Shown piece after piece: positions 11,327-41,145 of a stretch of DNA of 64,000 nt. The notes beneath the pieces are model-generated. The model had not been told where the DNA came from. It searched no databases and saw only the letters and a list, made by a program, of their open reading frames with translations. The stretch's first letter is position 1. The number at the start of each line of letters is the position of its first letter. Source of the stretch: Terriglobia bacterium. GTDB lineage: Bacteria; Acidobacteriota; Terriglobia; JAJPHL01; JAPKYU01. Position numbers and translations under genes: made by a program. Location of the stretch: positions 704,001-768,000 of the forward strand of contig CBDCVK010000010.1 of assembly GCA_965223005.1 (NCBI GenBank), given 5' to 3'.

Positions 11327-14224
11327 TTGATAGGGGAATTCCGGTTACGGTTCACGTCCATACTCGTGGGATTACTCACGATCTCCCTGGGCGTGTTGGC
11401 ATGGATCAACCTCGACCAGCAGCGCAAATTCCACCCTCCCCATGACGGGGCGACCTGGCAGGACAGCGCGGCAGGTGTCGTTGCCCGGTACGTGGAGCCC
11501 GGCGGGCCGGCAGCGCGGGCCGGAATTCAGGAAGGCGACCTACTGCGCAGCATCAATAGCGGCCCCATTCCCCGGGCCGCCCGCGTTACAAGGCTGCTCT
11601 ACCAGCTGGGCAACTGGGGCAGTGCGGAATATGAGCTGAGCCGCAGCGGGCGCCCCGTCGTCGCCTCCGTCATTCCGGAGCCGCGACAGACCAGCAGTCC
11701 CCTCCAACGCTACCTGCAGGTGGTGGCGCTGCTGTATTTGGCCATAGGCTTGTATGTCGTGCTGCGGCGCGGGCAAGCCGCGCGAGCCCTCCACTTTTAT
11801 CTGTTCTGCCTGGCTTCGTTTGTCCTGTATTTCTACCGCTACACCGGCAAGCTGGACGGTTTGGACTGGACTGTTTACTGGTCGAATGTTGTGGCCACCC
11901 TCCTGCAGCCGGCCCTGTTTCTCCATTTTGCCCTGGCGTTTCCAGAGCCGCGGGAATGGCTGAGGCGCCGCTCGTTCCTACTCCCGCTGGCCTACGCCCC
12001 GGCGGCGGTGTTGCTGCTGGTCCATCTAGGGGTCGTATCTCGCGTGCTGGAAATCGGCCTGCCGATCGGGACCGTGAGCTGGTGGCTGGATCGCATCGCC
12101 TACGCCCACCTGGCGGCGTGGTTTCTGGGGGGCACGGCTGTCCTGTACCAGGCTTATCGTCGAGCGCAGACACCGCTGCTGCGCCAGCAGATGAAGTGGA
12201 TTACTCGCGGCGTGACCCTCGGCATTGTCCCCTTTGCCGCTTTCTACATCCTGCCTTTCCTGTCGGGCGCGGTGCCAGCCGTTTGGATGCAGCTGTCGGC
12301 GCTTTCCCTGGTGTTGATCCCCCTGACCTTCGGCTACGCGATTCTGCGCTACCGGCTCATGGATGTGGACATTCTGTTCCGCCGCGGCGCCGCCTATACG
12401 CTGGCCACCCTGACGCTGGTAGCGCTGTACTTCACGGTGGTGGCGGTGGCTGGACTGGTGTTTCACTCCAGCCTGCCGGCTACCGGGACAGCGGGGCTTG
12501 TGATCGCGGTGGTGGTCAGCGCCCTTCTGTTCCATCCGCTGCGCGCCCGCATTCAGGAGCGCCTGGACCGCTACTTCTACCGTGAGCGCTACGACTACAG
12601 AAAAACGTTGGTGGATTTCGGCCGCGAGCTGAGCACCGAAACTGACCTTGCGCGCCTGCTGGGAGCGGTGTCCGAGCGGTTGTCTCACACGCTCAACGTG
12701 GAGCGGGTAGCCGTCTTCCTGCCAGATGAAAAGCCCAATGAGCAGGACGATGAGCAGGGCCAAATGCGGCTGGCGCACTCACGGGGACTGTCACTAGACG
12801 AGGAACCTGATCTGGGCTTCTTGGATGCCGCTCGGGCTGAATCCGCGCGAGGCTATCTGTTCTTTGAGAACACGAGGCTGGCGCCAGGCGAGGCGGAGCC
12901 GGCGCGCCGCGCGATCGCCACCCTGGACCTGCAGTATTACCTCGCTTGCCGGGCCCAGGGGCGCATCGTGGGATTCCTGGGGTTGGGCCAGACCAGTGAG
13001 AACAACTTCCTGTCCAGTGAGGACGTGGCGTTGTTGGAGGCGCTGTCGGGGCATCTGGGTGCGGCGGTCGAGAACGCAAGGCTCTACCGGCGCCTCGAGC
13101 GAAAGGCAGCCGAGTACGAACGCCTGAAGGAGTTCAACGAGAACATTGTCGAGTCGCTCAGCGTAGGCATCCTGGTGCTGGATCTGGACGACCGGGTCGA
13201 AAGCTGGAACACGCAACTGGAGCTGATGTACGGTCTGTCGCGCGAGCGAACTCGCGGTCAGCCAGTGGACAAAGTCCTCCCCGCGGAACTGGTGGCCGAG
13301 TTGCTGCGCTTCCGCAGCGACAGCGGGATTCATAACCTGTATCAGCACCGGGTGCGCACGCCGTCGGGCAGCGAGCGGGCTCTGAACATCGCGGTGGCCC
13401 CCTTGGTGAGCAAGAGGTTTGAACCGATTGGCCGGCTGCTCATCTTCGACGACGTCAGCGAGCGGGTGGAGCTGGAGCAGCAACTGGCCGAGGCGGAAAA
13501 GCTGAGCTCGGTCGGACTGCTGGCCGCCGGCGTGGCCCACGAGGTGAACACGCCGCTGACGGTCATCTCCAGCTACGCCCAAATGCTTTCCAAGCAGCTC
13601 CCAAACGAGGACGCGCGCGGAAAGCTGCTGGAGAAGATCATCAAGTCCACCTTCCGGGCCTCGGAAATCGTCAATAACCTTCTGAACTTTTCCCGAACCG
13701 GCAGCGCCCAGATGGCGCCAGTGGACTTGCACCGCGTGGTGCGCGACACACTAGCCTTGTTGGAGCACCCACTGAGAACCAGCCACGTGGAGGTGGAAAC
13801 CCGCTTCGCCCAGCAGCCGCCCCTCGTGCAGGGCAACGCCGGCAAGCTCCAGCAGGTGTTTCTCAATCTGTTCCTGAACGCCCGAGACGCCATGCCAGAA
13901 GGAGGCCGTCTGCGGGTCCATACGGAAACCAGTGAAGGTGCAGTTCAGGTGCAGGTGTCGGATAGCGGCCAGGGCATATCCCAGAAGCACATCCACCGCA
14001 TCTACGATCCCTTCTTCACCACCAAGGCCGCCCGCCCCGGCAACGGGGATATTTTGCGCTCCGGCGTTGGCCTGGGCCTCTCGGTCACCTACGGGATCGT
14101 CAAAGAGCATGCCGGCACCATCCGAGTGGAAAGCTCTCAGAGCCAGGGGACCGCCTTCTTGCTGGAGTTTCCCCGGTTGCCAGACAAGTTGAGAGCGACG
14201 TTGCCAGAAACCGTGAGCGTCTGA
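11327..14224 (+). CDS. Membrane sensor histidine kinase (PDZ - multi-TM - GAF - PAS - HisKA - HATPase)
   Basis: PDZ VEPGGPAARAGIQEGD, multiple TM helices, H-box AGVAHEVNTPL, N-box QQVFLNLFLNARDAM, G1 DSGQGI, DPFFTTK, G2 GVGLGL. Confidence 0.95.
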   Translation: MIGEFRLRFTSILVGLLTISLGVLAWINLDQQRKFHPPHDGATWQDSAAGVVARYVEPGGPAARAGIQEGDLLRSINSGPIPRAARVTRLLYQLGNWGSAEYELSRSGRPVVASVIPEPRQTSSPLQRYLQVVALLYLAIGLYVVLRRGQAARALHFYLFCLASFVLYFYRYTGKLDGLDWTVYWSNVVATLLQPALFLHFALAFPEPREWLRRRSFLLPLAYAPAAVLLLVHLGVVSRVLEIGLPIGTVSWWLDRIAYAHLAAWFLGGTAVLYQAYRRAQTPLLRQQMKWITRGVTLGIVPFAAFYILPFLSGAVPAVWMQLSALSLVLIPLTFGYAILRYRLMDVDILFRRGAAYTLATLTLVALYFTVVAVAGLVFHSSLPATGTAGLVIAVVVSALLFHPLRARIQERLDRYFYRERYDYRKTLVDFGRELSTETDLARLLGAVSERLSHTLNVERVAVFLPDEKPNEQDDEQGQMRLAHSRGLSLDEEPDLGFLDAARAESARGYLFFENTRLAPGEAEPARRAIATLDLQYYLACRAQGRIVGFLGLGQTSENNFLSSEDVALLEALSGHLGAAVENARLYRRLERKAAEYERLKEFNENIVESLSVGILVLDLDDRVESWNTQLELMYGLSRERTRGQPVDKVLPAELVAELLRFRSDSGIHNLYQHRVRTPSGSERALNIAVAPLVSKRFEPIGRLLIFDDVSERVELEQQLAEAEKLSSVGLLAAGVAHEVNTPLTVISSYAQMLSKQLPNEDARGKLLEKIIKSTFRASEIVNNLLNFSRTGSAQMAPVDLHRVVRDTLALLEHPLRTSHVEVETRFAQQPPLVQGNAGKLQQVFLNLFLNARDAMPEGGRLRVHTETSEGAVQVQVSDSGQGISQKHIHRIYDPFFTTKAARPGNGDILRSGVGLGLSVTYGIVKEHAGTIRVESSQSQGTAFLLEFPRLPDKLRATLPETVSV

Positions 14225-14226: not shown

Positions 14227-15681
14227 ATGGCTGAAGGAAGAATTCTGATTGTTGATGATGAGGCAGAAGTCCGGGAAAGCCTGGAGACCTTGCTTGGCCT
14301 GGAAGGTTTCGAGGCGCTCTCGGCCGAGAGCGCCGAAGCTGGCCTGCAACTGCTGGGGCGCCGGGTCTTCGACCTGGTGCTGCTGGATGTGGCTCTGCCC
14401 GGCCGCAGCGGCCTCGAGGCGCTCGAAGAGATTCGTCGTCTGGACCCGAACCTGCCAGTGCTGATGATCACCGCTTACGCCTCGGTGGAGAACGCGGTGG
14501 CCGCCATGCACGCCGGAGCCCGCAACTACCTGACCAAGCCCTGGGATAACGAGAAGCTCGTGCTGGAAATCCGCAACACGGTGAGCACCCGCCGATTGGA
14601 AGCGGAAAACGTGCAGCTTCGGCGGGCATTGAAGCAGCGCTACTGCCTCCCCAATATCGTGGGCAAAGGCGAGCCCATGCTGAAGATTCTCGACCTGGTG
14701 GAGCAGATTGCGCCCAGCCGTTCGACGGTCTTGCTGAGCGGGGAAAGCGGGACCGGCAAGGAGCTGATCGCCAAAGCCATCCACGCCCACTCGCCGCGCG
14801 CCGACCGCCCCTTCGTGCCGGTCAATACCGGCAGCATGCCGGTGGATCTGCTGGAAAGCCTGCTGTTCGGCCATGTCAAGGGAGCCTTCACGAGCGCGGT
14901 CGCTTCTAAGAAGGGCTTCTTCGAGGTAGCCGACCGAGGCACCCTGTTCTTCGATGAAATCGGCACCATCGGCCTGGAAACGCAGGCCAAGCTGTTGCGG
15001 GTGATTCAGGAGCGCGAGTTCACACCGCTTGGCTCGACTGAGCTGGTCAAGGTGGACGTCCGTATTATTGCCGCCACCAACGTGGACTTGCACCGTCTGA
15101 TGGCCGAAGCCAAGTTCCGCGAGGACCTATACTACCGTCTGAACGTGATCTCGCTGCCGTTGCCGCCCCTGCGCGAACGAAAAGAGGATATCCCGCTGCT
15201 GGTGGACCATTTTCTGAAGAAGTATTGCGAGGAAAATCAGAAACCGCTGCGCCGTTTTTCGACGCCAGCCATGCGGCACCTGATGGATTACCACTGGCCG
15301 GGCAACGTGCGCGAACTGGAGAACGCCGTCGAACGGGCGGTCGTGCTTTCCCGGGAGCCCCTGGTGGATCCTTTGCTGTTGCCGGAATCCCTGCGGGAGC
15401 GAGCCGGCAAGGGTTCGGGCCTGCTGTCGGTTGTGGAGGAGCGCCCCGGCGCCTCCTTGTTCGAGATCCTGGACGAGTGCGAGCGCAGAGTCATTGTGGA
15501 CATGCTGGAGAAAACGAACTGGAGCCAGACCGAAGCCGCCGAGCGCTTTCAGATTCCCCTCTCAACGCTAAATCAGAAAATCAAGCGGCTGAACATCGAG
15601 ATCAAGCGGAAAAGTCGCAACTCGCACGCGCGGGAACGGGAGGAAGTGGCTACGCCCGAACGCGCGCATGCTCGCAGTTGA
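14227..15681 (+). CDS. sigma54-dependent response regulator (NtrC/AtoC family)
   Basis: REC (ILIVDDE, LLDV), GESGTGKEL, GAFTSA, FFDEIG, FREDLYYRLNV, WPGNVRELEN, C-terminal HTH. Confidence 0.96.
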   Translation: MAEGRILIVDDEAEVRESLETLLGLEGFEALSAESAEAGLQLLGRRVFDLVLLDVALPGRSGLEALEEIRRLDPNLPVLMITAYASVENAVAAMHAGARNYLTKPWDNEKLVLEIRNTVSTRRLEAENVQLRRALKQRYCLPNIVGKGEPMLKILDLVEQIAPSRSTVLLSGESGTGKELIAKAIHAHSPRADRPFVPVNTGSMPVDLLESLLFGHVKGAFTSAVASKKGFFEVADRGTLFFDEIGTIGLETQAKLLRVIQEREFTPLGSTELVKVDVRIIAATNVDLHRLMAEAKFREDLYYRLNVISLPLPPLRERKEDIPLLVDHFLKKYCEENQKPLRRFSTPAMRHLMDYHWPGNVRELENAVERAVVLSREPLVDPLLLPESLRERAGKGSGLLSVVEERPGASLFEILDECERRVIVDMLEKTNWSQTEAAERFQIPLSTLNQKIKRLNIEIKRKSRNSHAREREEVATPERAHARS

Positions 15682-15815
15682 ATTTTCCTGCACAACTGGC
15701 TTCGTCACACCCTCATTTCTGCCTGCTGTCGCCTGCGGGTTGCAGGTCGCTGAGCTGAGATATGTTGCTGATATCCAAGAACGTAAATCTTTTTCAAGAA
15801 ACCCAATCATTTTCG

Positions 15816-15844
15816 TTGACAATCAGTAATTTTCCTTTTAAATT
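15816..15844 (+). promoter_or_regulatory. sigma70 promoter (TTGACA-N17-TAAATT), near-leaderless transcript
   Basis: Perfect -35 and 17-nt spacer. ATG 15854 is only 9 nt past the -10 and there is no SD. Confidence 0.7.
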
Positions 15845-15853
15845 CCACCGCCT

Positions 15854-16197
15854 ATGAATGTTCAGAGAATCCTACAATCACTTCGTCGGGAACAAGGACA
15901 ACTGGAGGAAGCGATTTCCGCGCTGGAACGTCTGGCGGCGCTGGGCCGCCGCGGCCGCCCGCCGGGGCGTCGCGGCCCAGGGAGGCCGCCCAAACGTCGC
16001 GGTCCGGGACGACCACCCAAGCGTCGCGGTCCGGGACGACCACCCAAGCGTCGCGGTCCGGGACGCCCAAACGTCGCGGTCCGGGACGACCGCCCAAACG
16101 TCGCGGTCCGGGACGACCGCCCAAACGTCGCGGTCCGGGGAGGCCGCGGAAGCGCCGCGGACCGGGCCGACCTCCCGTGACGGAGCAACCGAGCTAG
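15854..16197 (+). CDS. Small coiled-coil plus multiple AT-hook-like (RRGPGRPPK)n protein, frameshifted by a 4-nt deletion
   Basis: MNVQRILQSLRREQGQLEEAISALERL then RRGRPP and tandem RRGPGRPPK. As assembled it ends at TGA 16180; the repeat frame continues to TAG 16197. Confidence 0.75.
15968..16179 (+). repeat. Tandem array of eight 27-nt coding repeats (unit 4 is 23 nt)
   Basis: Consensus cgtcgcggtccgggacgaccgcccaaa; units start at 15968, 15995, 16022, 16049 (23 nt), 16072, 16099, 16126 and 16153. Confidence 0.95.
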
Positions 16198-16559: not shown

Positions 16560-17282
16560 ATGAAATTCGCGGTAGTCGTCTTTCCAGGCAGCAACTGTGA
16601 CGACGACGCCTACCAGGCGATCCGAGTGCAGTTGCGCCAGCCCGTGAGCTTCATCTGGCACCGGTCGCAGGATCTGGAAAACGCCGATGCGGTGATCCTG
16701 CCCGGTGGCTTTTCCTACGGCGACTACCTTCGGACGGGCGCCATCGCGCGCTTCTCTCCGGTGCTGGCGGCGGTGAAGCTCTTTGCGGACGGAGGGGGGT
16801 TGGTGCTGGGCATCTGCAACGGCTTCCAGATTCTTCTCGAGACTGGCCTGCTACCCGGAGCCATGCTGCGTAACCGCAGCCTGCGGTTCATTTGTCGACC
16901 CGTTCACCTCCGTGTGGAGAACACTTCGTTGCCCTTTACGCTTGCTTGCGAGCCCTGGCAGGTCCTGCGCGTTCCTATCGCCCACGCCGAGGGCAATTAT
17001 TTCGCCGAGCCTGAGGCGCTGGCCGAACTGGAGCGCAACGGCCGGGTAGCGTTCCGCTACTCGACCGCGGAGGGCGCCGTCACGCCGGAAGCGAATCCGA
17101 ACGGCTCGTTGCACAATATCGCCGGGATCGTCAACGAAGCCGGCAATGTCCTGGGGGTGATGCCCCACCCGGAACGCGCCAGCGATGCGCGCCTGGGTTC
17201 CACTGATGGGCTGTTCCTGTTCCGCTCGATGGTGGAGTGGACCGCCCGGCGCGCTTCCTTCGCAGTCCAAGCTTTGCGCTGA
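16560..17282 (+). CDS. purQ: Phosphoribosylformylglycinamidine synthase I
   Basis: [44 protein letters not shown]. Confidence 0.98.
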
Positions 17283-17287
17283 CCCGT

Positions 17288-19543
17288 GTGAGCACGATTA
17301 CTCCCGACGTAGTCACGCAACACCAGATCACCGCCGCAGAATACGCCCGGATCCTCGAACTGCTGGGGCGAGAGCCGAACCTGACCGAGCTGGGCATCTT
17401 CAGCGTGATGTGGAGCGAGCACTGCAGCTACAAGAGTTCGCGACTGCTGCTAAAGAACCTGCCCACCGAGGGCCCGTGCGTGCTGCAGGGCCCCGGCGAG
17501 AACGCCGGCGTCATTGACATTGGCGACGGCTGGGCTTGCGTCTTCAAGATCGAATCGCATAACCACCCCAGTTTTGTCGAGCCCTTCCAGGGCGCAGCCA
17601 CCGGGGTAGGCGGCATCCTGCGCGACATCTTCACCATGGGCGCCCGGCCCATTGCGGTGCTGGATTCGCTGCGATTTGGGCCCGTGCAGACAGACGCCCA
17701 AGCGGCGCGGAACCGGCGCATCCTGGACGGGGTGGTCCGGGGCATCGCCCACTACGGCAACTGTTTCGGGGTGCCGACGGTGGGAGGGGAGGCCGTCTTC
17801 GAGCCGTGCTACAGCTCCAACCCGCTGGTCAACGTATTTGCCCTGGGCGTGGCTCCCGCTGAGCAGCTGTTCTTTGCGCGTGCCGGCGGGCCGGGAAACA
17901 CAGTCATCTACGTGGGGGCCAAGACCGGCCGGGACGGCATTCACGGGGCGTCCTTGCTGGCCTCGGCCGAGTTTACGGAGGAATCCCGGCAGAAACGCCC
18001 CAACGTCCAGGTGGGCGACCCTTTCCTGGAGAAACTGCTGCTGGAGGCGTGCCTGGAAGCAATGCAGACCGGGGCGGTGGTGGGCATCCAGGACATGGGC
18101 GCCGCCGGACTCACTTGCTCCAACTGCGAAATGGGCGCGCGGGCCGGCACGGGAATCGAGATCGAACTGGACCGGGTCCCGCAGCGCGAGACGGGAATGT
18201 CTCCCTACGAAATCATGCTCAGCGAGTCGCAGGAGCGGATGCTGCTGGTGGCCGAACGCGGGCGGGAGCAAGAAATTTCTGCGGTCTTCCACAAGTGGGG
18301 CCTGGACGCGGTGGCCATCGGCGTAGTCACCGACGACCAACGGCTGCGCGTGCGCCACGACGGCCGGGTGGTGGCTGACATTCCCAACGCCGCCCTGGCG
18401 CGGGAGGCCCCGGCTTACCTGCGCCCGCGCAAGCCAGCTCCCCGGCCCGTTCCGCTGGAGCCCCCCTTGGAATTCGCCCACGGCTTCGGGGCGCGCAACT
18501 TGACCGCCGACTGCAAACAGCTGCTGGCCTCGCCCACCATCGCCGGCAAGCGCTGGATCTGGGAGCAGTACGACTCGATGGTGCGCACCAACACGGTCGC
18601 GGGGCCGGGCAGCGATGCGGCAGTCCTCCGCCTGAAAGAAACAGGCCAGGGTCTGGCCATCAGCCTGGACGGCAACGGACGTTACGCCTGGCTGGAACCG
18701 CGCCTGGGCGCGCGCCTGGCGGTCGCCGAAGCCAGTCGCAACGTGAGTTGCACTGGGGCGCGGCCCATCGCCGCCACGAACTGCCTGAACTTCGGCAATC
18801 CGGAAAAACCCGAAGTCATGTGGCAGTTCGCTGAGGCCGTGGAAGGCGTGGCGGAAGCCTGCCGCGCCCTCCAGACCCCGGTCACCGGCGGCAACGTCAG
18901 CTTCTACAATGAGACACTGGGCCAGAGTATTTACCCCACACCTGTGGTCGGCATCGTGGGCCTGCTGGAAAAGGACGCCACGCCACTCGGGTACTGTTTC
19001 CGCGCAGCCAGCCGCCGCGTCGTGTTGCTAGGAGGCATCCCCGACGGCGACGTCAACGAGGCGGCGGTGCGCTTCGGTTCCACCGAATATGCCCGCAGCG
19101 TGCTGGGGTGTGTCTGGGGGTTGCCGCCCACGCTGGATCTGGAGTATGAAGCCCGGGTTCAGGCCTGCTGCCGTGAGCTGGCCCGCCAGGGCGTGATTGA
19201 ATCGGCCCACGACGTCAGCGATGGGGGTCTGGTCGTGACGCTGGCCGAATCTTGCCTTTCCGGCATGGGGCTGGAGGCCGACCTGGATTCCGCGCTCGGT
19301 CCGCAACTGGCCCTGTTCGCTGAATTTTCCTCCCGCATTGTGGTGTCGGTGGCGGAGAATCGCCTTGCCGCGCTGGATTCGATTGCGGCACAATATGAGG
19401 TCAGCACCGACGAGCTAGGCGTGACCCGACCGGGACGTTTCTCGTTAAGTGTGAACGGAAACCCAGCGGTCCAGAGTACCGTCGAAGAATTGCAAGTGAT
19501 CTGGGAACAGGCCTTGCCAAACAACCTAAAGCTGAAAAACTGA
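17288..19543 (+). CDS. purL: Phosphoribosylformylglycinamidine synthase II
   Basis: [64 protein letters not shown]; GTG start placed at 17288. Confidence 0.98.
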
Positions 19544-19573
19544 AGTCCGCGAAGGGAAGCACCGGGAGCAATA

Positions 19574-20989
19574 ATGGCCGCAGTGATCAGGCCGGACAAG
19601 TTCCGCGACGAATGTGGTGTGATGGGAGTCTGTGGCCACCCGGAAGCGGCCAAGCTGGTTTACCTGGGGCTGCATGCGCTCCAGCACCGTGGCCAAGAAA
19701 GCGCGGGGATCGTGGCCAGCGACGGCCTCCAGTTGCGCGCGCACAAGGGTATGGGAGAGGTGTCGGAAGTCTTCAGCGAGCCCGCACTGGCGTCACTCCA
19801 CGGACAGTTCGCGGTCGGCCATACGCGCTACTCGACGGCCGGCGACACCTCGCTGAACAACGCCCAGCCGTTAACCGTGGACTGCAATAAAGGCTTGCTG
19901 GCTCTGGCGCACAACGGCAACCTGGTGAACGCGCGGCAAGTCCGCCGGCGCCTGGAACAGCGGGGCTCCATCTTCCAGACCACTAGCGACAGCGAAGTCA
20001 TCCTGCACCTTATCGCCCACTCGCGCCAGAAGCTGCTGATCGACGCCCTTGCGGAGGCACTGCACCAGGTGGAAGGTGCTTATTCCCTGGTGCTGCTGAC
20101 TCGCGACCGGCTCATCGCCGTGCGGGACCCGCGCGGCTTCCGGCCCCTCTGCCTGGGCCAGCTGGATGGCGCCGTGGTCGTTGCCTCAGAAACCTGCGCC
20201 TTCGATCTGCTAGGCGCTCGCTACGATGGGGAAATCGAGCCGGGCGAGTTGGTGGTGGCCGAGGCCGGAAGCTCTACCCGGACGCGGTTCAGCGCGCCGA
20301 TGCCGCACCACTATTGCATTTTTGAGCACGTTTATTTCTCCCGTCCGGACAGCATCGTCTTCGGGCGCCCCGTGCACGAGTCCCGCGAGATGCTGGGACG
20401 GTTGCTGGCGCGCGAGGCTCCGGCCGACGCCGACATTGTGGTTCCCGTGCCCGATTCCGGCGTCCCTGCCGCGGCCGGCTACGCCAACGAATCCGGCCTT
20501 CCGCTGAAACTTGGCTTGATCCGCAACCACTACGTGGGCCGTACTTTTATCGAGCCAGAACAGACCATCCGCGATTTTGGCGTCAAGCTGAAGCTGAATC
20601 CGGTGCGTACCCTGCTGGAAGGGCAGCGGGTGGTATTGGTGGACGATTCCATCGTGCGCGGCACCACCAGTCGAAAAATCGTACGCATGATCCGTGAGGC
20701 CGGGGCCCGCGAAGTCCACATGCGCATCTCCTGCCCCCCCACCATTTCTCCCTGCTACTACGGCGTGGACACTCCCAACGAAAAGGAACTGATCGCCGCC
20801 AACTGCTCGATCGAGCAGATCCGCGAGTACACCAACGCCGACTCGCTGGCCTACCTCTCCTTGGAGAGCCTGCGGCGGGCGGTGGAGGATCAGGACAGCC
20901 GCTATTGTACTGCCTGCTACACTCGTAAGTATCCTACCGAGTTGCCGAACGCCGAGCTGGAGGCTGGCCTTGCAGGACGAGGCACGTGA
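19574..20989 (+). CDS. purF: Amidophosphoribosyltransferase
   Basis: Propeptide-DECGV, LQHRGQESAGI, GHTRYST, VLVDDSIVRGTTS, YCTAC. Confidence 0.98.
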   Translation: MAAVIRPDKFRDECGVMGVCGHPEAAKLVYLGLHALQHRGQESAGIVASDGLQLRAHKGMGEVSEVFSEPALASLHGQFAVGHTRYSTAGDTSLNNAQPLTVDCNKGLLALAHNGNLVNARQVRRRLEQRGSIFQTTSDSEVILHLIAHSRQKLLIDALAEALHQVEGAYSLVLLTRDRLIAVRDPRGFRPLCLGQLDGAVVVASETCAFDLLGARYDGEIEPGELVVAEAGSSTRTRFSAPMPHHYCIFEHVYFSRPDSIVFGRPVHESREMLGRLLAREAPADADIVVPVPDSGVPAAAGYANESGLPLKLGLIRNHYVGRTFIEPEQTIRDFGVKLKLNPVRTLLEGQRVVLVDDSIVRGTTSRKIVRMIREAGAREVHMRISCPPTISPCYYGVDTPNEKELIAANCSIEQIREYTNADSLAYLSLESLRRAVEDQDSRYCTACYTRKYPTELPNAELEAGLAGRGT

Positions 20990-27529: not shown

Positions 27530-30500
27530 TTATATGCGCGGACGCTCCTCGTCCGCTTCGTCAATGAAAAACTCCGCCGGAGTGGGCCGCGCTTCCTCAG
27601 CCACGACCTCTTCCACCGGCAGCAGTTCAGCTTCGGCGTCGGTGGAGAGCCGGACCCGGCGGTAATAGTCCAAACCGGTGCCGGCCGGAATCAGCCTGCC
27701 CATGATCACGTTTTCCTTCAGGCCGCGCAGGTAGTCCACCTTCCCGGAGATGGCCGCCTCGGTCAGCACGCGGGTGGTCTCCTGGAAGGAGGCCGCCGAG
27801 ATAAAGGAATCTGTGGAGAGCGAGGCTTTGGTGATGCCCATCAGCAAGGGCCGCCCGACCGCCGGCTTGCTTCCACGGGCGAGAACCAGTTCATTTTCCT
27901 CGGCAAACCGGAAGCGGTCCACCACTTCTTCCAGCAGGAACTCAGTGTCGCCTACCTCCTCCAACTTCACCCAACGCATCATCTGCCGGACGATGACCTC
28001 AATGTGCTTGTCGTTGACGGTGACCCCCTGAAGGCGGTACACCTCCTGGATTTCTTTGACCAGATAGTCCTGGGTTTTTCTCTCGCCCAACACCGCTAGG
28101 ATGTCATGGGGGTTCAACGGCCCGTCCATCAAGGGCTCGCCGGCCCGGACACGCTCCCCCTCCTGAACCCGGACGTGCACACCTCGCGGGAGGGAATACT
28201 CATGCTCGATGCCGTCGTCGGCGGCCACCAAGATCTTGCGCAGGCCTTTGGAAATGTCGCCATGCTTCACCACGCCGTCCACTTCACTGATCACGGCCGG
28301 GTCTTTCGGGTTCCGAGCCTCGAACAGTTCCACGACCCGCGGCAGACCCCCGGTAATGTCCTTGGTCTTTGTGGTTTCGCGCGGGATCTTGGCCAGCACA
28401 TCGCCGGGATGCACCTCGTCGCGGTCGCTCACCATCAGGTGGGCCCGGGTGGGCATCAGGTACTGCTTGATGGACTTGTGTTTGTCGCTGCGGATGATCA
28501 CGGTGGGCTGCAACTTCTCGTCCGCCGCATCGGTCACCACCGAGCGCGACAGCCCGGTGATCTCATCCACTTCCTCGTGCAGAGTGACGCCTTCCAACAG
28601 GTCCTTAAACTGGATCGTGCCCCCCACCTCGGTGAGGATGGAGAAGGTATAGGGATCCCACTCCACCAGGGTCTGGCCGAGAGTGACCGGCTGGCCGTCC
28701 TCAACCAGCAACTTGGCGCCGTAGACCACCAAGTAGTGTTCCTTCTCCCGCCCCTTCTCGTCCACGATGGTGATAGCGCCGCTGCGGTTCATCGCCACCA
28801 GCCGTTTTTCCTTGGAGCGCACGGTGGTCAGGTTCGTGAAGCGCACGAAGCCGTTGTTCTTGGCCTCCAGGGTGGACTGCTCGCTGATCCGGGTAGCCGT
28901 GCCCCCGATGTGGAAGGTGCGCATGGTGAGCTGGGTGCCGGGCTCGCCGATGGACTGGGCGGCAATAATGCCCACCGCTTCGCCCAATTCTGCCAGCCGA
29001 CCGCTGGCCAGGTTCCGTCCGTAGCACATGATACAAACACCGCGCCGGGCCTCGCATGTCAGCACCGAACGAATCTTGACCCGCTCGATGCCGGCCGCCT
29101 GGATCGCGTTGGCTAGCTCCTCGTCGATCTGTTGGTTGACATCGGCGATGACGTTGCCCTCGTAGTCCTTGACCTTCTCCAGCGAGATGCGCCCTACGAT
29201 GCGGTCCCGCAACGGCTCGATGATCTCGCCCGACTCCACGATGGGCTCGGCATAAATCCCGTCGGCGGTGCCGCAGTCCTCCATGCTGATGGTGGCGTCC
29301 TGGGCCACATCCACCAGGCGGCGCGTCAGGTAGCCGGAGTCAGCCGTCTTTAGCGCCGTGTCGGCCAGTCCCTTGCGGGCCCCGTGCGTGGAGATGAAGT
29401 ATTGCAGCACGGTGAGACCCTCGCGGAAGTTGGCGGTGATGGGCGTTTCAATGATTTCCCCCGAGGGTTTGGCCATCAGACCGCGCATGCCCGAAAGCTG
29501 CCGGATCTGCTGCTTGGATCCGCGGGCCCCGGAGTCAGCCATGATGTAGATGGGGTTGAAGTGCTCCCCTTTCTGGTCCTCCGCCTCCATGGCGTTGAAC
29601 ATCTCGTCGGCCACCCGCTCGGTGATGTTCGACCAGATGGCGATCACTTTGTTGTAGCGCTCGCCGTTGGTGATGGCTCCGTCCATGTACTGCTGCTGCA
29701 CGGCGATCACTTCCTTCTCGGCTTGCCTCACCAGCGCCTGCTTGTTGATCGGGATGACCATGTCGTCGATGCCGATCGAGATGCCGGCTTTCGTGGCGTA
29801 AAGAAAGCCCAGGGTCTTGATCTCGTCCAGTATCTTCACCGTGGCTTCCAGGCCAAACTGCAGGTAGCAGTACTGGACCAGTTGGCCGACGCCCTTCTTC
29901 TTGAGTAGGCCGTTGATGAAGGGCATCGTTTTGGACAGGTGGTCGTTCAGGATGACTCGTCCAACCGTGGTTTCCAGATATTGGTTCTGGAAGTTGACGG
30001 GCTCGGTGTGCAGGATATCCTGGTTGTCGTAGGCGCGGGTCAGGTCGATCACCTTGCCAGAATAACGGAGGCGGATCGGCGTCAGAGTCTCCACCTCGCC
30101 CATTTCCAGGGCTAGCAGCACTTCCTCCGCGTTGGCGAACGTGCGACCTTCTCCCTTCGTGGTATGGCGTGCCTTGGTCAGATAGTAGAGGCCGAGCACC
30201 ATATCCTGGGTAGGCACGGCCAGGGGCTGCCCATTGGCCGGCGACAGGATGTTGTTGGAGCTCAGCATCAGCACGCTGGCCTCGATCTGCGCCTCCGGCG
30301 ACAGCGGGATGTGCACCGCCATCTGGTCTCCGTCGAAGTCGGCGTTGAACGCGGTGCAGACCAGCGGGTGAATCTGAATGGCTTTGCCTTCCACCAGGAC
30401 CGGCTCAAACGCCTGGATGCCCAGGCGGTGCAAGGTGGGGGCCCGGTTGAGCAGCACCGGATGGTCGCGGATGACCTCCTCCAGGATGTCCCAGACCAGG

Positions 30501-31714
30501 GGTTCCTTCTGTTCGACCAGTTCCTTGGCCTGCTTGATGGTGGTGCAGTAGCCCCTCTGTTCCAGGCGGTGATAGATAAAGGGCTTGAACAGTTCCAGGG
30601 CCATCTGTTTGGGGAGGCCGCACTGGTGCAATTTCAGCTCCGGGCCAACGACGATGACCGAGCGCCCGGAATAATCCACGCGTTTCCCTAACAGGTTCTG
30701 GCGGAAGCGGCCTTGTTTTCCCTTCAGGGTGTCGGAGAGAGATTTCAGCGGTCGGTTATTCGCGCCGCGCAGGATGCGGCCGCGGCGCCCGTTGTCAAAC
30801 AACGCATCTACCGCTTCCTGCAACATTCTCTTTTCATTCCTCACGATCACGTCCGGGGCGTGCAGCTCCATGAGCTTCTTCAGCCGGTTATTGCGGTTGA
30901 TGACCCGGCGATAGAGATCGTTCAGGTCGGAAGTGGCAAAGCGGCCACCGTCGAGTGGCACTAGCGGACGCAGTTCCGGGGGAATCACCGGGAGCACATT
31001 CAGGATCATCCACTCCGGCCGGTTGCCCGACTTGCGGAAGGCGTCCACCACCTTCAGCCGCTTGGCATACTTGATCCGCTTCTGTGTGCTGGGCTCGTTC
31101 TTCATCTTGTCGCGCAACTCTTCGGCCATCGCTTCCACGTCCACCCGCTTCAGCAGCTCCTTGATGGCCTCGCCGCCCATCATGGCCACGAACTTGCCCG
31201 GGTATTCCTGCTGCGGTTGCCGGAACTCCTCTTCGCTCAGGATCTGACGCTCTTTCACCGGAGCCTCACCCGGATCCACCACGACGTAGGCCTCAAAGTA
31301 GAGCACCCGCTCCAGATCCCGCAGGGTGATGTCCAGCAGGTAGCCGATGCGGCTGGGCAGGCCCTTGAAGAACCAGACGTGAGAGCAGGGGGAGGCCAGC
31401 TCGATGTGCCCCAACCGCTCTCGCCGCACACGCGACAGGGTGACTTCCACTCCGCACTTGTCGCAGACGACTCCCCGGTGTTTCATCCGCTTGTACTTGC
31501 CACAGAGGCACTCCCAGTCCTGTGTCGGGCCAAAGATGCGGGCGCAGAACAGGCCGTCGCGTTCCGGCTTAAAGGTGCGATAGTTGATCGTCTCCGGCTT
31601 GGTCACCTCCCCGTGTGACCAGCTGCGGATCTTCTCCGGCGAAGCCAGGCTGATCCGGATGGAGTCGAAGTCGGCAATCAGATTCGCTCGGTCGTAGGGA
31701 CTGCTTCGATACAA
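27530..31714 (-). CDS. rpoC: RNA polymerase beta' subunit
   Basis: [12 protein letters not shown] catalytic motif, both zinc-binding motifs; TTG start at 31714 with GGAGG RBS. Confidence 0.99.
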
Positions 31715-31847
31715 GGCATCCTCCACTGGGCATTCGCCCCAAGGCTAAGAAACCAGAATTTACCCATCCAGACGCCAACTGCTCGCGCAGCGGGTCTGTT
31801 GGTGTCCTTTGCGTGCATCCAGATTCCTCTTGTCAACCGCCACAGCG

Positions 31848-34800
31848 CTAATCGGCTGCAGCCGCCGCTGTGTCCAATAGCTCTTTCTTGCGCTTCATCA
31901 GTTCCACGTCCAGGCACAGCGACTGAAGTTCGCGAATCAAAACGTTGAAGGATTCCGGCACTCCCGGCTCCATTGCCGCTTCGCCCTTGACGATGGCTTC
32001 GTAGATCTTGGCGCGGCCATAGACGTCGTCGGACTTGGCGGTGAGCAGCTCCTGCAGGATGTGGGCGGCGCCATAGGCCTCCAGAGCCCACACCTCCATT
32101 TCGCCGAAGCGCTGCCCGCCAAACTGGGCCTTGCCCCCCAGTGGCTGCTGGGTGATCAGCGAGTAGGGACCGATCGAGCGGGCGTGGATCTTGTCGTCCA
32201 CCAGGTGCGAGAGCTTGAACATGTAGATGTAGCCCACCGTCACCGGCTGCTCGAACGGCTCACCGTTCATCCCGTCGTACAGCACGGTCTTGCCGGACAG
32301 GGGTAGGTTTGCCTGTTTCAGCATCTTCTTGATCTCGGTCTCGGTGGCGCCGTCGAAGACAGGGGAAGCGAAATGCAACCCCAGCACCTGGCCCGCCCAG
32401 CCCAGGTGCGTCTCCAGGATCTGGCCCACGTTCATGCGCGAAGGCACCCCGAGCGGGTTCAGCACAATCTCCACCGGTTTGCCGTCGGGCAGGTGGGGCA
32501 TGTCCTCTTCGGGCACGATCCGGGCGATGACGCCCTTGTTGCCGTGCCGGCCGGCCATTTTGTCGCCCACCGAGAGCTTCCGCTTCATGGCGATGTAGAC
32601 CTTCACCAGCTTGATCACGCCCGGCGGCAGCTCATCGCCCTTCTTCAGCTTTTCCTCCTTCTCCTTGGTGATCTTCTGCAGCACGTCAATCTGCCGCGAC
32701 GTCATCTCTTCAATCTCGTCGACCTCTTCGTTGAGCCGCGGGTCGCGGTCGGCAAACTTCATGCGCTTGAGGTCTCGCGACTTGATGTGGGCAATCAAAT
32801 CTGGCGTCAGCACCGTGCCCTTGCTCAGCAGGCGCTTATTGGTGCGCTCATCATGCAGGTCGGCCAGCAGCCTCTTCGCACCCAGCAGGGCCATCAAGCG
32901 GTTCCGCCGCTCGTCGGTAAGGATCTTGATCTGGTCAGCCAAGTTCTTTTCCAGGAGCGTGACCTCGGCGGCTTCAATGGCCTTGGCGCGCTCGTCTTTC
33001 TCCTGGCCCTTGCGGGAGAAAATTTTCACATCCACGACAATGCCCTCAATGCCCGGGGGACAGTAGAGCGAGGCGTCGCGCACGTCGCCAGCCTTCTCGC
33101 CGAAGATGGCGCGCAGCAGTTTCTCCTCGGGGGTCAGCTGGGTTTCCCCCTTGGGGGTTACCTTGCCCACGAAGATGTCGCCTGGCCTGATGGTGGCGCC
33201 GGTGCGAATGATCCCGCTCTCGTCCAGGTCGCGCAGAAAGGTCTCCGCGATGTTGGGGATGTCGCGGGTGATATCTTCGGGGCCCAGCTTGGTATCCCGC
33301 GCCTCGATCTCGTACTCCTCGATGTGGATCGAGGTGAAGCTGTCTTCCTTGACCAGCCTCTCGCTGACCACGATCGCGTCTTCGAAGTTGTAGCCGCGCC
33401 AGGGCATGAAGGCCACCAGGATGTTGCGGCCCAGGGCCAGCTCGCCGCGGTGCGTGCAGGGGCCGTCGGCCAGCACCTGTCCCCTGCCGACGCGCTCGCC
33501 CCGGCGCACCACGGGCTTCTGGTTGATGCAGGTGTTCTGGTTGGAGCGCCTGAACTTGGTGAGTCGGTAGACGTCGGCGTGGATGGCGGCCGACATGGTG
33601 CCCGGTTCCCCTTCCCCTTCGGCGCGCACGATGATCCGTTCGCTGTCCACCGTCTCCACGGTCCCGTCGCGCCGGCACAGCACCACTGCGCCGGAATCGC
33701 GGGCGGTGACGTATTCCATCCCCGTACCCACCAGCGGCGCATCGGCCCGCAGCAGTGGCACGGCCTGGCGCTGCATGTTGGAACCCATCAGGGCACGGTT
33801 GGCGTCGTCGTTCTCCAGGAAGGGGACCAGCGAGGCCGCCACCGAAACCAGTTGCTTCGGGCTGATGTCAATGAAGTCGATTTCGTCGCGGCTCTTCAGC
33901 ACGAAATTGCCCGCTTGGCGCGCGTTCACCAGTTCGGGCACGATGCGTCCGTTCTCGTCCAACTCCACGTTGGCCTGGGCGATCACATACTTGTCCTCCT
34001 CCCAGGCGGAGAGGTAGAAGCAGTACGGCTCATACTCGGCCACCCGCTTGTGCCGCGCCTTCGTCTCGCGGTTGCTCTCTTCAAGCCTGCGCTTCTCGAC
34101 GTGCTCAGCCACCTTCAAGCCGGTATCGCCCCCGTTGATGATGGTGACGTAATCCACTGCTCGCCCCTTCTCCACCTTGCGGTAGGGGCTCTCAATAAAA
34201 CCAAACTCGTTGATCTGCGCATAGCAGGACAGCGAGGAGATCAATCCAATGTTGGGGCCTTCCGGGGTTTCGATGGGGCAAATGCGGCCGTAGTGGGTGG
34301 GATGCACGTCCCGCACCTCGAAGCCCGCGCGCTCGCGACTCAAGCCCCCCGGGCCCAGCGCTGACAGGCGCCTCTTGTGGGTGATTTCCGACAGCGGGTT
34401 CGTCTGGTCCATGAACTGAGAGAGCTGGCTGGAGCCAAAGAACTCCCGGATGGCGGCCATCACCGGCTTGGCGTTGACCAGGTCGTGAGGCATCGCGGTG
34501 GAGATCTCCTGGTAGACGGACATCTTTTCCTTGATGGCCCGCTCCATGCGCACCAGCCCGATGCGGAACTGGTTTTCCAGCAGTTCACCCACCGCCCGCA
34601 CGCGTCGGTTGCCCAGATGGTCAATGTCATCCACACTACCGATATTGCGGCGCAGCTTGAGCTGGTAGCGGATGGTGGCGAAGAAGTCCTCCTGCTCCAG
34701 GGTGCGGTTGTCCAGGGAGCTATCTGCACCCAACTTGATGTTCAACTTCAACCGCCCGACCCGCGAAAAGTCATACTTGCGCGGGTCAAAGAACATCCCT

Positions 34801-36146
34801 TGGAACAGCGAGGTGGCTGTTTCCAGAGTGGGCGGATCTCCCGGGCGCAGCTTCCGGTAGATCTCGATCAGAGCCTCCTGCGAAGTCTTGATGCTGTCCC
34901 GCCTCAGGGTCTGGCTGATGACCGGACCCACCTCGTCGCGTTCAGGGAACAAGACGCTGAACTCCGAAATCTTGGCATCTTGCAGAATGGAGAGCAAATT
35001 GGAAGTCAGCTCGCTGTTGGCTTCCGCCAGGACTTCGCCCGACTCCTGGTTCACGACGTCGGCCACCGTGAACGCCCCTTCCAGATCGTGGAGGGAAATC
35101 TCCACCTGCTGCACTCGGCCCTTCTGCAGTTCCTTGAGTACCTGCGGCGTGATTTTCTTGCCAGCGTGCATCAGGACTTCCCCGCTGCGGGGCTGCAGGA
35201 CCTGATGAGAAAGCTTCATACCCAACAGACCTTCCGAAACCTGCCAGTATAGCTTCTTGTCCTCGAGCCGGATCCGCTCCACCTGGTAGAAGCAGCGCAG
35301 GATCTCCTCGTCGTTCTTCAGGCCCAGGGCGCGCAGGAAGATCGTTCCCAGGAACTTACGCTTGCGGTCAATGCGTACGTAGAGCAGGTTCTTGGCGTCG
35401 TATTCAAATTCCACCCATGAGCCCCGGTAAGGAATAATCTTGCCCAGAAAGTAGGTGCGTTGGTTGGCAACATCAAAAAAGACTCCGGGAGAGCGGTGCA
35501 GCTGGTTGACGATGACGCGCTCGGTTCCGGTGATGATGAAGGTCCCGTTTTCGGTCATCAGCGGGACCTCGCCGAAAAACACTTCCTGCTCTTTGATGTC
35601 GCGGATGCTCTTCGCGCCGGTATCAGGGGCCTTTTCATAAATGGTGAGCCGGATGGTGACCTTGAGCGGTGCCGAGTAAGTCATGCCCCGTTCCTGGCAT
35701 TCGGCCACGTCGTATTTCAACTGCAACCCGACCGGATCCCCGCACTTGTTGCAGAAGGCGACCACGTTGGTGTTGAAGGTGCCACAGCGAGAGCACAGCA
35801 CTTCTTGCCCAATGGCAAACGGATTGGTGATGATGGTGGCCGCGCAGTTCTGGCAGGTGGAGCGCAGGTGGTGAAGGCCCTTGAGGTTGCCGCACTTGCA
35901 CTCCCAGTTGCCGATCGAGTATTCCACGAACTCCAGCGACGAGATGCCGCGGAAATCGGTGATGGGAAAGACGGAATTGAACACCGACTGCAACCCGAGG
36001 TCCTCCCGCTCGCTGGGAAGTCGGTCCATCTGCAGGAAGCGGTCGTAGGACTTCTTCTGGACCTCGATCAGGTTCGGGATGGGAACCGTGGTGCCGATCT
36101 TGGAAAACTCAATCCGCTCGTGCGGGCCGTGCAAGCTAGTTTGCAT
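31848..36146 (-). CDS. rpoB: RNA polymerase beta subunit with N-terminal Cys-rich insertion
   Basis: [51 protein letters not shown]. Confidence 0.99.
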
Positions 36147-36391
36147 AGTTCAAATCTCCTCCGCCGCCGAAGCTGGGGCGCCACCACGACCGGAACCGGG
36201 CAAGGGAAGGGAACACTCCTCCCCCGGATATGCTCGTCGCGCAAATGGGAAATACGCCACAGCAAATTGCCAGCCAACTACCAGTCAACTATTAGTCGAA
36301 CCCTGTCGCCTCTGCAGCGCCGGGCACCTCCCAGCGCTGCGGTCACACAGTCGACCGCAACCGTGGACGAAACCTTTTACTTGACCTCAGC

Positions 36392-36793
36392 TTACTTGAC
36401 TTCAACAGTGGCCCCAGCTTCGGTGAACTTCTTCTTCAGGCCCTCAGCCTCTTCTTTCGTAACCTCTTCCTTGATGGGCTTGGGAGCATTGTCCACCAGG
36501 TCCTTGGCTTCCTTCAGACCCAGGCTGGTGACTTCGCGCACCGCTTTAATGACGCCGATCTTGTTGGCTCCCACCGCGGTCAGGATGACGTTGAACTCGG
36601 TCTGCTCTTCGACCGCAGGCGTCGCCGAGGGACCTCCCGGGCCGACCCCGGGTACTACAACCTGAGCGGCGGCGGCCGAGACGCCAAACGTCTCTTCCAA
36701 ATGCTTCACCAACTGCGAGGCCTCCAGCAAGGAAAGGGCTTTGACCTGTTCTACGATGTTGTCAATCTTCTCGTTTTCAATCTTCTCCGGCAT
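36392..36793 (-). CDS. rplL: 50S ribosomal protein L7/L12
   Basis: [41 protein letters not shown]. Confidence 0.98.
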
Positions 36794-36856
36794 CTCTTCT
36801 CCTCAAAAGGTGCATGGTCGCAAGTGCGACCAAATCACTGCGTTGGAACTGCCTAG

Positions 36857-37384
36857 TTATTCGGCAAACTTGTTGGCCTCGACAGCCTGATTAACCACCG
36901 ACGCCAGACTGCGGGCGACCGCTGTGACTGCAGACGCCACTCCCCGGGCCGGTGCGTTCAACATGTAGAGCACTCGTAGGATTAGCTCTTCCCTGCCCGG
37001 AAGAGCGGCCAGCTCGGCAATTTCCTGAATCGAGATCGCACGGCCCTCTACCACACCGGCCTTGAAGACGAATGAGGGATTCGCTTTGGCGTAGGCGACC
37101 AGGATTTTGGCCAGCGCCACCGGATCCTTCTCGGTGTATGCCACAGCGGTGGGGCCCACCAGGTTCTTCAGAGCGCTTTCGGCAGAAGTCCCGCGCGCCG
37201 CCAGCTCGGCCACTGTGTTCTTGACCACCCGGTATCTGCCCCCCGCCGTGCGCACCTGCTTGCGCAATTCGTACTCCTGAGCAACGGTGATCTTGGAAAA
37301 CTCAGAGACCAGGACGTTGGGCACGTGTTCCAGATCCGCCCTCAGCCCTTCCACTTCCTTCCGTTTCTGCTCGCGGTTCTTCAT
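36857..37384 (-). CDS. rplJ: 50S ribosomal protein L10
   Basis: YRVVKNTV, LVGPTAVA, FKAGVVEG, LAALPGREEL; synteny. Confidence 0.97.
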   Translation of the reverse strand: MKNREQKRKEVEGLRADLEHVPNVLVSEFSKITVAQEYELRKQVRTAGGRYRVVKNTVAELAARGTSAESALKNLVGPTAVAYTEKDPVALAKILVAYAKANPSFVFKAGVVEGRAISIQEIAELAALPGREELILRVLYMLNAPARGVASAVTAVARSLASVVNQAVEANKFAE

Positions 37385-37498
37385 TGTTGAGGCTGCTCGA
37401 TCAACTCCGACTCTTCAGGGCCACTCGCCCCACCTTCATCCACGACCGGTCTTCTGCAAGGCCTCTGGAAACCCACCGGGTTGCGAGACCGCGCAGCG

Positions 37499-38203
37499 CT
37501 AAGGCCCAGCTTCCAGTACCGCTACGTCAAGCGAAATCCCAGGAGTCATCGTCGCCGACAGGGTGACGCTGCGCACGTACTTACCTTTGGCCGCAGCCGG
37601 CTTGGCTTTGATGACGCTGCTAATCAGGGTGCCAGCATTTTCTACCAGTTTGTCTGTCTCGAACGAGATCTTGCCGACCGGCGCGTGGATGACACCGGTT
37701 TTGTCGGTGCGGAATTCCACCTTGCCGGCCTTGATCTCACGAACGGCGCGCGCCACCTCGAAGGTCACCGTGCCGGTCTTCGGGTTGGGCATCAGGCCGC
37801 GGGGTCCGAGCAGCTTGCCCAGCTTGCCGACCGACTTCATCATGTCCGGGGTGGCGACGACCGCCTCAAACCCTAGCCAGCCTTGCTGGATCTTGGTGAC
37901 CACATCATCGCCCCCCACCCAGTCGGCGCCGGCTTCCTCAGCTTCGCGTACTTTCTCGCCGGAGGCGATCGCCAGCACGCGCTTGGACTTTCCCAGCCCG
38001 TGCGGCAATACCACCGTTCCCCGCACCATCTGGTCGGCGTGCTTGGGATCGACTCCCAGCCGCAACGCCACCTCCACGGTTTCGTCGAACTTGGCGTACC
38101 GGATCTTCTTCAGCAACGGAACAGCTTCTTCCAGCTTGTACGTTCGAGCTTCCACCTGCTGGCGGGCCTTCACGTAGTTCTTGCCTTGGCGATGGTTGGG
38201 CAT
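37499..38203 (-). CDS. rplA: 50S ribosomal protein L1
   Basis: [39 protein letters not shown]. Confidence 0.99.
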
Positions 38204-38223
38204 AAGCGATTCTTTACTCAGCG

Positions 38224-38670
38224 CTACTCGATCTCGATGCCCATGCTGCGCGCGGTCCCTTTGACGCTGCGAATGGCTGCTTCCAACGAAGCCGCGTTCA
38301 GGTCCGGGAGCTTAGCGCGCGCAATCTCCTCTACGTCCTTCTCCGTCACCTGGCCCACCTTGTTCCGGTTGGGTTCGCCGGAGCCCTTGGCGATTCCGGC
38401 TGCGCGCTTCAACAACACCGAGGCCGGCGGCGTTTTGGTCACAAACGTGTACGAGCGGTCCCCGTACACCGTCATGACCACGGGGATGATCAGACCCTCC
38501 ATCTCCTTGGCCGAAGTCTTGGCGTTGAACGCCTTGCAGAAATCCATAATGTTGACCCCGTGCTGGCCCAGGGCCGGCCCCACCGGCGGGGCCGGCGTCG
38601 CTTTGCCGGCCGGAATCAGGACTTTTATTCGCGCCGCAACCCTCTTACCTCTGGGTGTCGCCACTGCCAT
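38224..38670 (-). CDS. rplK: 50S ribosomal protein L11
   Basis: [37 protein letters not shown]. Confidence 0.99.
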
Positions 38671-38691
38671 GTCTCACCACCAGTCCCGCTT

Positions 38692-39306: not shown

Positions 39307-39308
39307 GT

Positions 39309-39599: not shown

Positions 39600-39663
39600 C
39601 TGCCTTCCGCGTCAGCGCGCCCGAAACCGACGCTGGTGGATTACATCAAGCCCCCTGCAAAAC

Positions 39664-39738: not shown

Positions 39739-39795
39739 GTTTCCATCGCGGATCTATTCGCGCGCTTCCTCGATCTGCAATCCGAAACCCGAAAC

Positions 39796-39948: not shown

Positions 39949-39957
39949 GGCAGCTCC

Positions 39958-41145
<1,188 letters not shown>

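Follow-up and report, generated by a model that had tools for sequence, protein, structure and literature searches.

The DNA stretch analysed here (the window, 64,000 nt of assembly GCA_965223005.1, contig CBDCVK010000010.1, positions 704,001-768,000, forward strand) carries on its forward strand a small gene with an internal tandem array, called the hook gene in the following. Upstream of it, Pfam identified a PDZ/7TM/GAF/PAS histidine kinase (11327-14224) and a sigma-54 NtrC-type response regulator (14227-15681), both encoded on the same strand. Downstream and likewise on the forward strand are purQ-, purL- and purF-like genes (16560-20989), which were named from their sequences, with the Pfam match GATase_5 supporting purQ.

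According to frame translation, the intact frame of the hook gene starts at the ATG at 15854. It opens with an amphipathic helix of 31 aa (15854-15946), which is the region defining the family described below and, judged by the AF2 model, the heptads and the orthologue L001, a putative coiled coil. Hook 1, RRGRPPG (15947-15967), is the sole canonical RGRP and homologous to the first hook of the family; it is followed by a 27-nt tandem array (15968-16176) of eight RRGPGRP(P/R)K-type units, which contain PGRP hooks and are predicted to be disordered. The C-terminal TEQPS and the TAG stop of this frame (16180-16197) are common to L001. In the assembly, frame 0 comprises the N-terminus, hook 1 and three complete RRGPGRPPK units, then the 23-nt unit 5 (16049-16071), in which a 4-nt deletion near 16064-16066 shifts the frame; the assembled ORF of 108 aa and 5 GRP motifs then runs through an out-of-frame tail to a TGA stop (16178-16180), and the last four units sit in frame +2 with the terminus PVTEQPS-TAG at 16197. 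Unit 5 equals unit 6 minus 4 nt, missing at unit position 16-18. With the 4 nt restored, the protein has 115 aa and contains one RGRP and eight PGRP motifs. Frame reading and L001 thus confirm the anatomy described in a sequence-only reading of this DNA (an N-terminus, RRGRPP and eight units that read PGRP and not canonical RGRP, about 115 aa if repaired), except that the N-terminal region, given there as about 28 aa, is 31 aa long. TRF reported the array with a period of 27, 7.9 copies and a score of 262; the three TRF rows for the array score 262-298 versus at most 105 for the other six rows of the window. One of these other repeats, a 36-nt unit in 2.5 copies (score 105), is located at 51046-51133.

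Transcription of the hook gene may start at a sigma-70-type promoter (15816-15844, forward strand) composed of TTGACA (15816-15821), a spacer of 17 nt and TAAATT (15839-15844), which is identical in L001. This site has 10 of 12 consensus matches and is the single match between 15600 and 16600, a region for which shuffled sequences averaged 0.2. The ATG begins 9 nt past the -10 element, and the leader would be only about 2-3 nt long, in agreement with the near-leaderless sigma70 promoter proposed from the sequence alone. A Shine-Dalgarno-like motif was found ahead of the ATG neither in the window nor in L001, and one is present in 77 of 80 family loci (best 80 of 90). The promoter lies in an AT-rich island with several A/T tracts (15771-15870, 32% GC, the second-lowest 100-bp segment of the 64 kb), which is a possible autoregulatory binding surface. 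The most AT-rich 100 bp of the window (45241-45340, 26% GC), with TTGACA at 45309 followed by TATTATACT, also form a promoter-like island. At the hook-gene locus no intrinsic terminator-like site was found after the gene, no unusual fold was detected (z=0.6) and the Rfam scan gave no match.

A functional tie to the adjacent NtrC system or to the pur genes is unsupported: only L001 has the same neighbourhood, purQ/L/F being present in none of the 79 other loci (best 80 of 90 loci), and the kinase/NtrC neighbours are not kept beside other family genes. Further downstream, ORFs of 1398, 1432 and 395 aa together with five tRNAs (Trp, Tyr, Thr, Gly, Thr) on the reverse strand (27530-41868) look like an rpoBC/tuf cluster, from size and position.

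An intact orthologue and selection on the repeat

A single GTDB scan with the pattern QLEEAIx[SA]LE matched 163 stretches, 90 of which were confirmed and the best 80 kept. One of them, L001 (JAKZXP010000248.1, from a Terriglobia MAG), is syntenic with the window and 94% identical to it across 15.9 kb. The ORF of L001 is unbroken and lies behind the promoter also found in the window. Its 100 aa (32 K+R, 5 D+E, pI 12) include seven GRP motifs and end in the 11 residues that close the intact frame of the window gene. The number of motifs is nine in the window and seven in L001, showing that the repeat number varies between close relatives.

The promoter region (15760-15853) is identical between window and L001 at 92 of 94 nt, compared with 321 of 362 downstream. 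Codons 1-38 differ by one synonymous change and the encoded protein is identical, while codon differences amount to 9-13% in purQ, purL and purF and to 8% in the NtrC gene. Within the array, the variant codons of the 11 full units (6 from the window, 5 from L001) are synonymous versus non-synonymous at 10:2 in the hook frame, versus 1:10 and 1:11 in the other forward frames and 2:10, 0:11 and 6:6 in the reverse frames; the units are not independent of each other, and the direction is clear. Because the synonymous bias holds in the hook frame, the other frames of the array were discarded as readings. Since the array varies synonymously in this frame, the locus is almost certainly a real gene, and the codon comparison shows it, as far as sequence can, to be coding and under selection for the RRGPGRPPK peptide.

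The helix and AT-hook family

On sequence comparison the window gene is a derived, repeat-expanded and lineage-specific paralogue in a large unannotated Acidobacteriota family of helix and AT-hook proteins. A word-based search gave 85 relatives at E<=0.01 among 8000 candidates scored, and a profile of 30 sequences matched 2895 clusters of 50% identity at E<=1e-3, or 852 with the threshold set to E<=1e-10, counts that may take in unrelated GRP-repeat proteins such as P0152, which is among the best 150. Of 329 proteins, 299 (295 distinct) were accepted by an HMM built from the helix only; eight frameshifted or truncated names were left out of the patterns given below. Homologues, whose existence the sequence-only reading had left to be checked, thus do exist, mostly with two hooks each. 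Exactly two GRP motifs are present in 140 of 149 new representatives. Among 76 complete locus ORFs, with four cut by contig ends left out, 66 have two, nine have one and only L001 has seven. The nine hooks of the window gene, which had been called unusually many, are indeed far above the usual two of the family, but other long PGRP arrays exist. P0152 (883 aa), apparently a partial RpoD-like protein, has 30 GRP motifs in an N-terminal extension before sigma-70 regions 1.1/1.2; PGRP accounts for 27 of these, as an amplification of the unit also seen in the window gene.

The family consensus is MDVxKILxELRxEREQxEEAILSLERLAxGxGKRRGRPPAW...KRRGRPPGSKNK. Residues 1-47 of the window protein are 52-69% identical to two-hook members (E 5e-4 to 1e-2), and the helix-only HMM, in which the window sequence was included, scores the protein at 48.7 bits. 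The window protein has the family helix of about 30 aa with L10, A20, I21, E25, R26 and L27, and a GRP hook comes directly after it. The heptad core of this one helix is L7/L10, Q14/L17, I21/L24 and A28, and AF2 predicts a helix at residues 3-33 (block-mean pLDDT 91-97) and a low-confidence tail; the model of a typical member likewise shows one confident helix, and its low-confidence tail includes a helix of four residues at the Trp. Features of the typical form that are absent from both window and L001 are the two hooks, the Trp behind hook 1, the GSKNK behind hook 2, the paired boxes described below and the Shine-Dalgarno motif.

Neither Pfam nor NCBIfam assigned a family at cut-off to the window or L001 protein; weak TPR matches (E 0.01-0.3) were rejected as generic helix matches. 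PHROGs matched none of eight proteins, and all ESM Atlas clusters matched are labelled 'hypothetical protein', with Acidobacteriota as the commonest phylum. PDB sequence searches yielded nothing significant (best E 0.13 and 0.12). The top match of the family profile was weak (E=0.12) and connects the second hook of the family, RGRPxGSKNK, with the HMG-I(Y) peptide KRPRGRPKGSKNK (PDB 2EZD). Among 912 candidates for longer fused forms (176-2000 aa) none was found at E<=0.1, which is weak evidence. A description of the family was not found in the open full-text literature. Many entries between P0088 and P0234 have unrelated N-terminal extensions of 20-70 aa before the conserved MD[VI] start, which are probable wrong start calls.

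AT-hooks are described as a GRP core with Lys/Arg and Pro flanks (PMC11354804, PMC4615771). All nine GRP cores of the window gene have basic flanks, and one of the nine is a canonical RGRP. Pfam AT_hook (PF02178) matched neither the window nor the L001 protein; at E<=0.1 it matched 8 of 72 members of the family, and its cut-off was passed by the relative P0074 (23.4 versus 17.4 bits). G-R-P itself is invariant at both hook positions (59 of 59 members). With R or P denoting the residue before GRP, the 261 two-hook members comprise 193 RR, 41 RP, 21 PR, 6 other and no PP. The lack of PP is weakly significant (Fisher p=0.03) in a query-biased sample of related rows. Members with three or more motifs (n=11) are dominated by Pro before GRP. 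The Trp after the hook is kept by 271 of the 281 members that have fewer than three hooks, versus 1 of the 14 that have at least three. The second hook follows GRPxGS[KR][NST] in 230 of 295 members, with the HMGA-like form RGRPxGSKNK, which presumably resembles plant AHL type-I hooks. Across the alignments, PGRP naturally takes the place of RGRP at homologous positions. The greater copy number that accompanies it suggests that weaker hooks are offset by avidity. Replacement of the Arg before GRP is reported to leave 89% of repression in SufR (R75M), and Met, Leu or Pro is often found ahead of GRP in cyanobacterial SufR homologues, according to a preprint (10.64898/2025.12.26.696629). For an HMGA2 hook-3 peptide, the corresponding R4A change is described to lower DNA affinity (PMC6050235).

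Several groups of hook proteins were noted besides the typical members. The proteins P0001, P0002, P0003, P0005, P0006, P0007, P0011, P0021 and P0060 make up another unannotated family: their N-terminal helix is unrelated, they have 4-7 [KR]RGPGRPPK units, and the hooks alone align with the family of the window. A related family (P0058, P0064, P0070, P0071, P0079, P0080, P0020, P0039, P0082, P0066 and P0077; hhalign probability 98% against the two-hook profile) has a similar helix, 2-3 hooks and then a basic segment with the consensus SEEGRQRIAEAxRxRWAAKK, which we take to resemble NUMOD3-type motifs. Two Trp-less subfamilies, P0008/P0009/P0010/P0019/P0025 and P0004/P0036/P0037/P0044/P0072/P0084, each have 2-5 mostly PGRP hooks and are possibly independent hook expansions. 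A tree built from 29 columns of the helix left 30 of its 49 inner branches unresolved and so does not fix the number of such expansions.

Typical members are not mobile and occupy conserved chromosomal loci. Of the 80 loci (best 80 of 90), 60 contain amino-acid permease genes and 53 a beta-lactamase/NamZ gene. A second locus group (10 of 80, best 80 of 90) shares an upstream gene without Pfam match, with RsmD-like genes downstream in seven cases and RecG in five. More than one locus was found in 5 of 74 genomes, several of which have both locus types. By title, 78 of the 80 loci belong to Acidobacteriota and two to Gammaproteobacteria (best 80 of 90). The latter two are L021 (CAWCZA010000011.1) and L029 (NZ_CAJCHS010000256.1), whose records bear the titles Gammaproteobacteria / Nevskia soli. 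In both, the typical gene is present together with the boxes and permease neighbours as in Bryobacterales loci, and these assemblies are probably mislabelled.

Candidate function and rival readings

We propose that the product of the hook gene is a nucleoid-associated protein, small and very basic, whose single helix is followed by a disordered tail with 7-9 GRP motifs. The heptads and the conservation of the helix suggest that it self-associates as a coiled coil, which would bring 14-18 hooks together per oligomer. By analogy with AT-hook chemistry, each Gly-Arg-Pro would enter the narrow minor groove of A/T DNA, with the flanking Arg/Lys gripping the phosphates; PGRP, which does not have the first Arg, would probably bind more weakly, and the number of repeats could compensate for this by avidity. 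Such multivalent binding might coat or bridge AT-rich DNA, for example at promoters or in foreign DNA, within a genome whose GC content is about 62%. Coating or bridging might in turn compact the DNA and damp transcription, much like H-NS or Lsr2 do, without homology to them. The steps of this proposal differ in strength. The protein very probably binds nucleic acid, and a preference for AT-rich DNA's minor groove is fairly likely. Whether the whole chain holds, from oligomerisation to many weaker minor-groove hooks acting by avidity in a nucleoid protein, we consider evenly balanced, and we would put a global architectural or silencing role slightly below that. Several points count against this chain. 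Besides the missing Pfam AT_hook match, the effect of R4A in HMGA2 and the frameshifted alleles described below, there is no match to the family on plasmids or phages (with one typical member as query) or in PHROGs, whereas H-NS is common on plasmids; and the single helix would offer one interface, whereas H-NS-like bridgers have two dimerisation sites.

Known systems resemble the hook protein in parts. HMGA1 and HMGA2 are likewise small, basic and largely disordered with several GRP-core hooks, but the window-type protein is bacterial, has an N-terminal helix and lacks an acidic C-terminal tail, and it has 7-9 hooks, all PGRP but the first, where HMGA has three. HMGA2 is described with three AT-hooks and an acidic C-terminal tail (PMC4482583). 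With 7-9 motifs, no acidic tail and 5 D+E in 100 aa, the protein was not assigned to HMGA; the label HMGA-like of the sequence-only reading holds at the level of the motif and does not extend to the acidic tail or to a Pfam AT_hook match. H-NS, Bv3F, Lsr2, MvaT and Rok share the combination of an N-terminal helical, putatively oligomerising part with a basic, hook-like C-terminal part, and H-NS in addition the GRxPxW seen in the first hook of the typical family member. They differ in having a folded C-terminal DNA-binding domain, a second dimerisation site where a single helix with heptads is predicted here, and one hook where several are present here; for H-NS-like bridgers, a folded domain that binds DNA is described alongside the two dimerisation sites (PMC6936261). 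Membership in H-NS (PF00816, marked by a folded C-terminal domain with the signature TW.G.GR.P.W) was rejected, as the window protein has no Pfam match and no such folded domain in AF2, and Lsr2, MvaT and Rok gave no match in Pfam, NCBIfam and PHROGs scans. CarD of Myxococcus xanthus is also bacterial and has four RGRP hooks in a disordered tail (PMC4374960), but possesses an RNAP/CarG-binding N-terminal domain of about 180 aa and an acidic segment; the window protein has neither, and the CarD_CdnL_TRCF domain was not found in it. WhiB7 and SufR (COG2345) have bacterial GRP-core hooks as well, with Pro possible before GRP in SufR homologues, but each has one hook, attached to a folded regulator of the Fe-S or winged-helix type, whereas here the hooks are the sole candidate DNA-binding part.

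The protein could instead be an RNA-binding or polycationic condensing protein of the protamine, H1 or RGG kind, in which the PGRP units act by charge. The pI of 12, the disordered Arg/Pro/Gly tail and units without the first Arg of RGR would suit this reading, and variant AT-hooks may bind RNA about ten-fold better than DNA (PMC4615771). However, the strict conservation of G-R-P and the GSKNK extension argue for a shaped motif and not for bulk charge, and we regard this alternative as unlikely.

The upstream regions of typical members would also allow a reading of the family as a dimeric, site-specific (auto)repressor. Two 16-bp boxes GTTCYR-N4-YRGAAC (GTTC-N8-GAAC) occur within 250 bp upstream in 68 of 80 loci (best 80 of 90), one box in eight and none in four (best 80 of 90). 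In 51 of the 68 pairs the spacing is 85-87 bp, typically about 86 bp (for example at -141 and -54 in L019). In 61 of 68 loci, box 1 precedes by 4-9 nt the TTG -35-like element of a promoter-like TTGCA-17-TAAAA, and in those loci box 2 is 22-73 nt ahead of the ATG. Only 10 stray sites were found in about 1.05 Mb. The palindrome has an A/T centre and is flanked by A/T tracts. Two boxes flanking a promoter at such spacing resemble looped repression. In this alternative the zipper would set two hook pairs symmetrically on the palindrome, the DNA would be looped between boxes about eight helical turns apart on either side of the family's own promoter, and the window paralogue would have lost the conserved Trp together with the two boxes, turning into a non-specific binder. 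The distribution of the Trp fits this, as does the window sequence, where, as in L001, no box is present (best PWM score in the window 2.3 bits versus at least 11.9 for real sites). On the other side, the half-sites are invariant and contain G:C pairs, which is commoner with major-groove readout by a helix-turn-helix regulator. Such a regulator is not apparent in the conserved neighbour clusters (eight neighbour proteins run through Pfam). The repressor reading has no direct bearing on the window allele, and the box pattern was counted in the same upstream regions from which it was derived. Rfam gave nothing in the 15 of 80 loci scanned, so the boxes are not a catalogued RNA, and no paper on the GTTC-N8-GAAC motif was found in the open full-text literature. 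All in all, this repressor is an improbable account of the family.

The frameshift raises the question of whether the window holds a decaying paralogue or an unstable contingency locus, in which the array slips and the number of hooks is drift and not a tuned valency. The alleles P0235 and P0236 (on contigs of 1.55 and 0.55 Mb) are 98% identical to L001 over residues 1-47 and leave the hook frame within the array, at differing places and into another frame than the window. Reading both frames, they would hold about 6-7 and 9 motif positions. Thus three of four alleles are broken (window, P0235 and P0236), each at a different place, and the window is not generally error-rich, since its flanking genes show no net frameshift against L001. 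Against decay, the helix, the promoter and the C-terminus are conserved over a background divergence of about 5-6%, the units past the break retain the synonymous bias, and the broken alleles keep the helix and 3-5 hooks. P0236, as read from the protein, appears to bear several independent indels inside the array, as consensus noise would give. The frameshifts could stem from true slippage as well as from errors in the consensus of a GC-rich repeat; for the 4-nt break of the window an error is somewhat likelier than a real lesion. Even if real, the break spares the helix and five hooks, which is above the usual two of the family. Decay or contingency is given as little weight as the repressor.

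Finally, it is very improbable that the family is a degenerate H-NS homologue that has retained its N-terminal helix and a GRxPxW loop. In favour of it, GRxPxW can be lined up with the G, P and W that are invariant in short H-NS proteins, and six of the 72 members have a Pfam Histone_HNS match below threshold (the best at 21.4 versus 25.6 bits, E=2e-4). Against it, profile-profile comparison with nine short H-NS proteins gave 14 columns at a probability of 15% with the helix outside the alignment, E. coli H-NS scored 1.3%, the family has no TW.G core and no folded C-terminal domain in AF2, and the window protein has no Trp.

Meaning for the Acidobacteriota

The bacterial AT-hook proteins named in a 2025 preprint are WhiB7, CarD and SufR-like proteins only (10.64898/2025.12.26.696629), and the main text of a review on xenogeneic silencers mentions Acidobacteria zero times (PMC8476142). 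The window allele is the least typical member of the family and may be mis-assembled. The natural forms with 1, 2, 3-5, 7 and 9 hooks offer a series relating hook number to affinity, the RGRP/PGRP swaps at one position a series relating hook sequence to affinity, and the paired palindromes define a putative operator. It is conceivable, but rather doubtful, that the Acidobacteriota have a chromatin or silencer class of their own, in which a minimal leucine-zipper-like helix bears disordered AT-hooks of eukaryotic style, with conserved chromosomal paralogues whose promoters are governed by a DNA loop between the two palindromes and, in this lineage, a valency of 3-9 hooks set by slippage as a heritable and rapidly varying silencing strength. 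With its hundreds of clusters and fixed loci in Terriglobia, the hook-on-helix family would be a candidate for organising or silencing AT-rich DNA in an abundant soil phylum.
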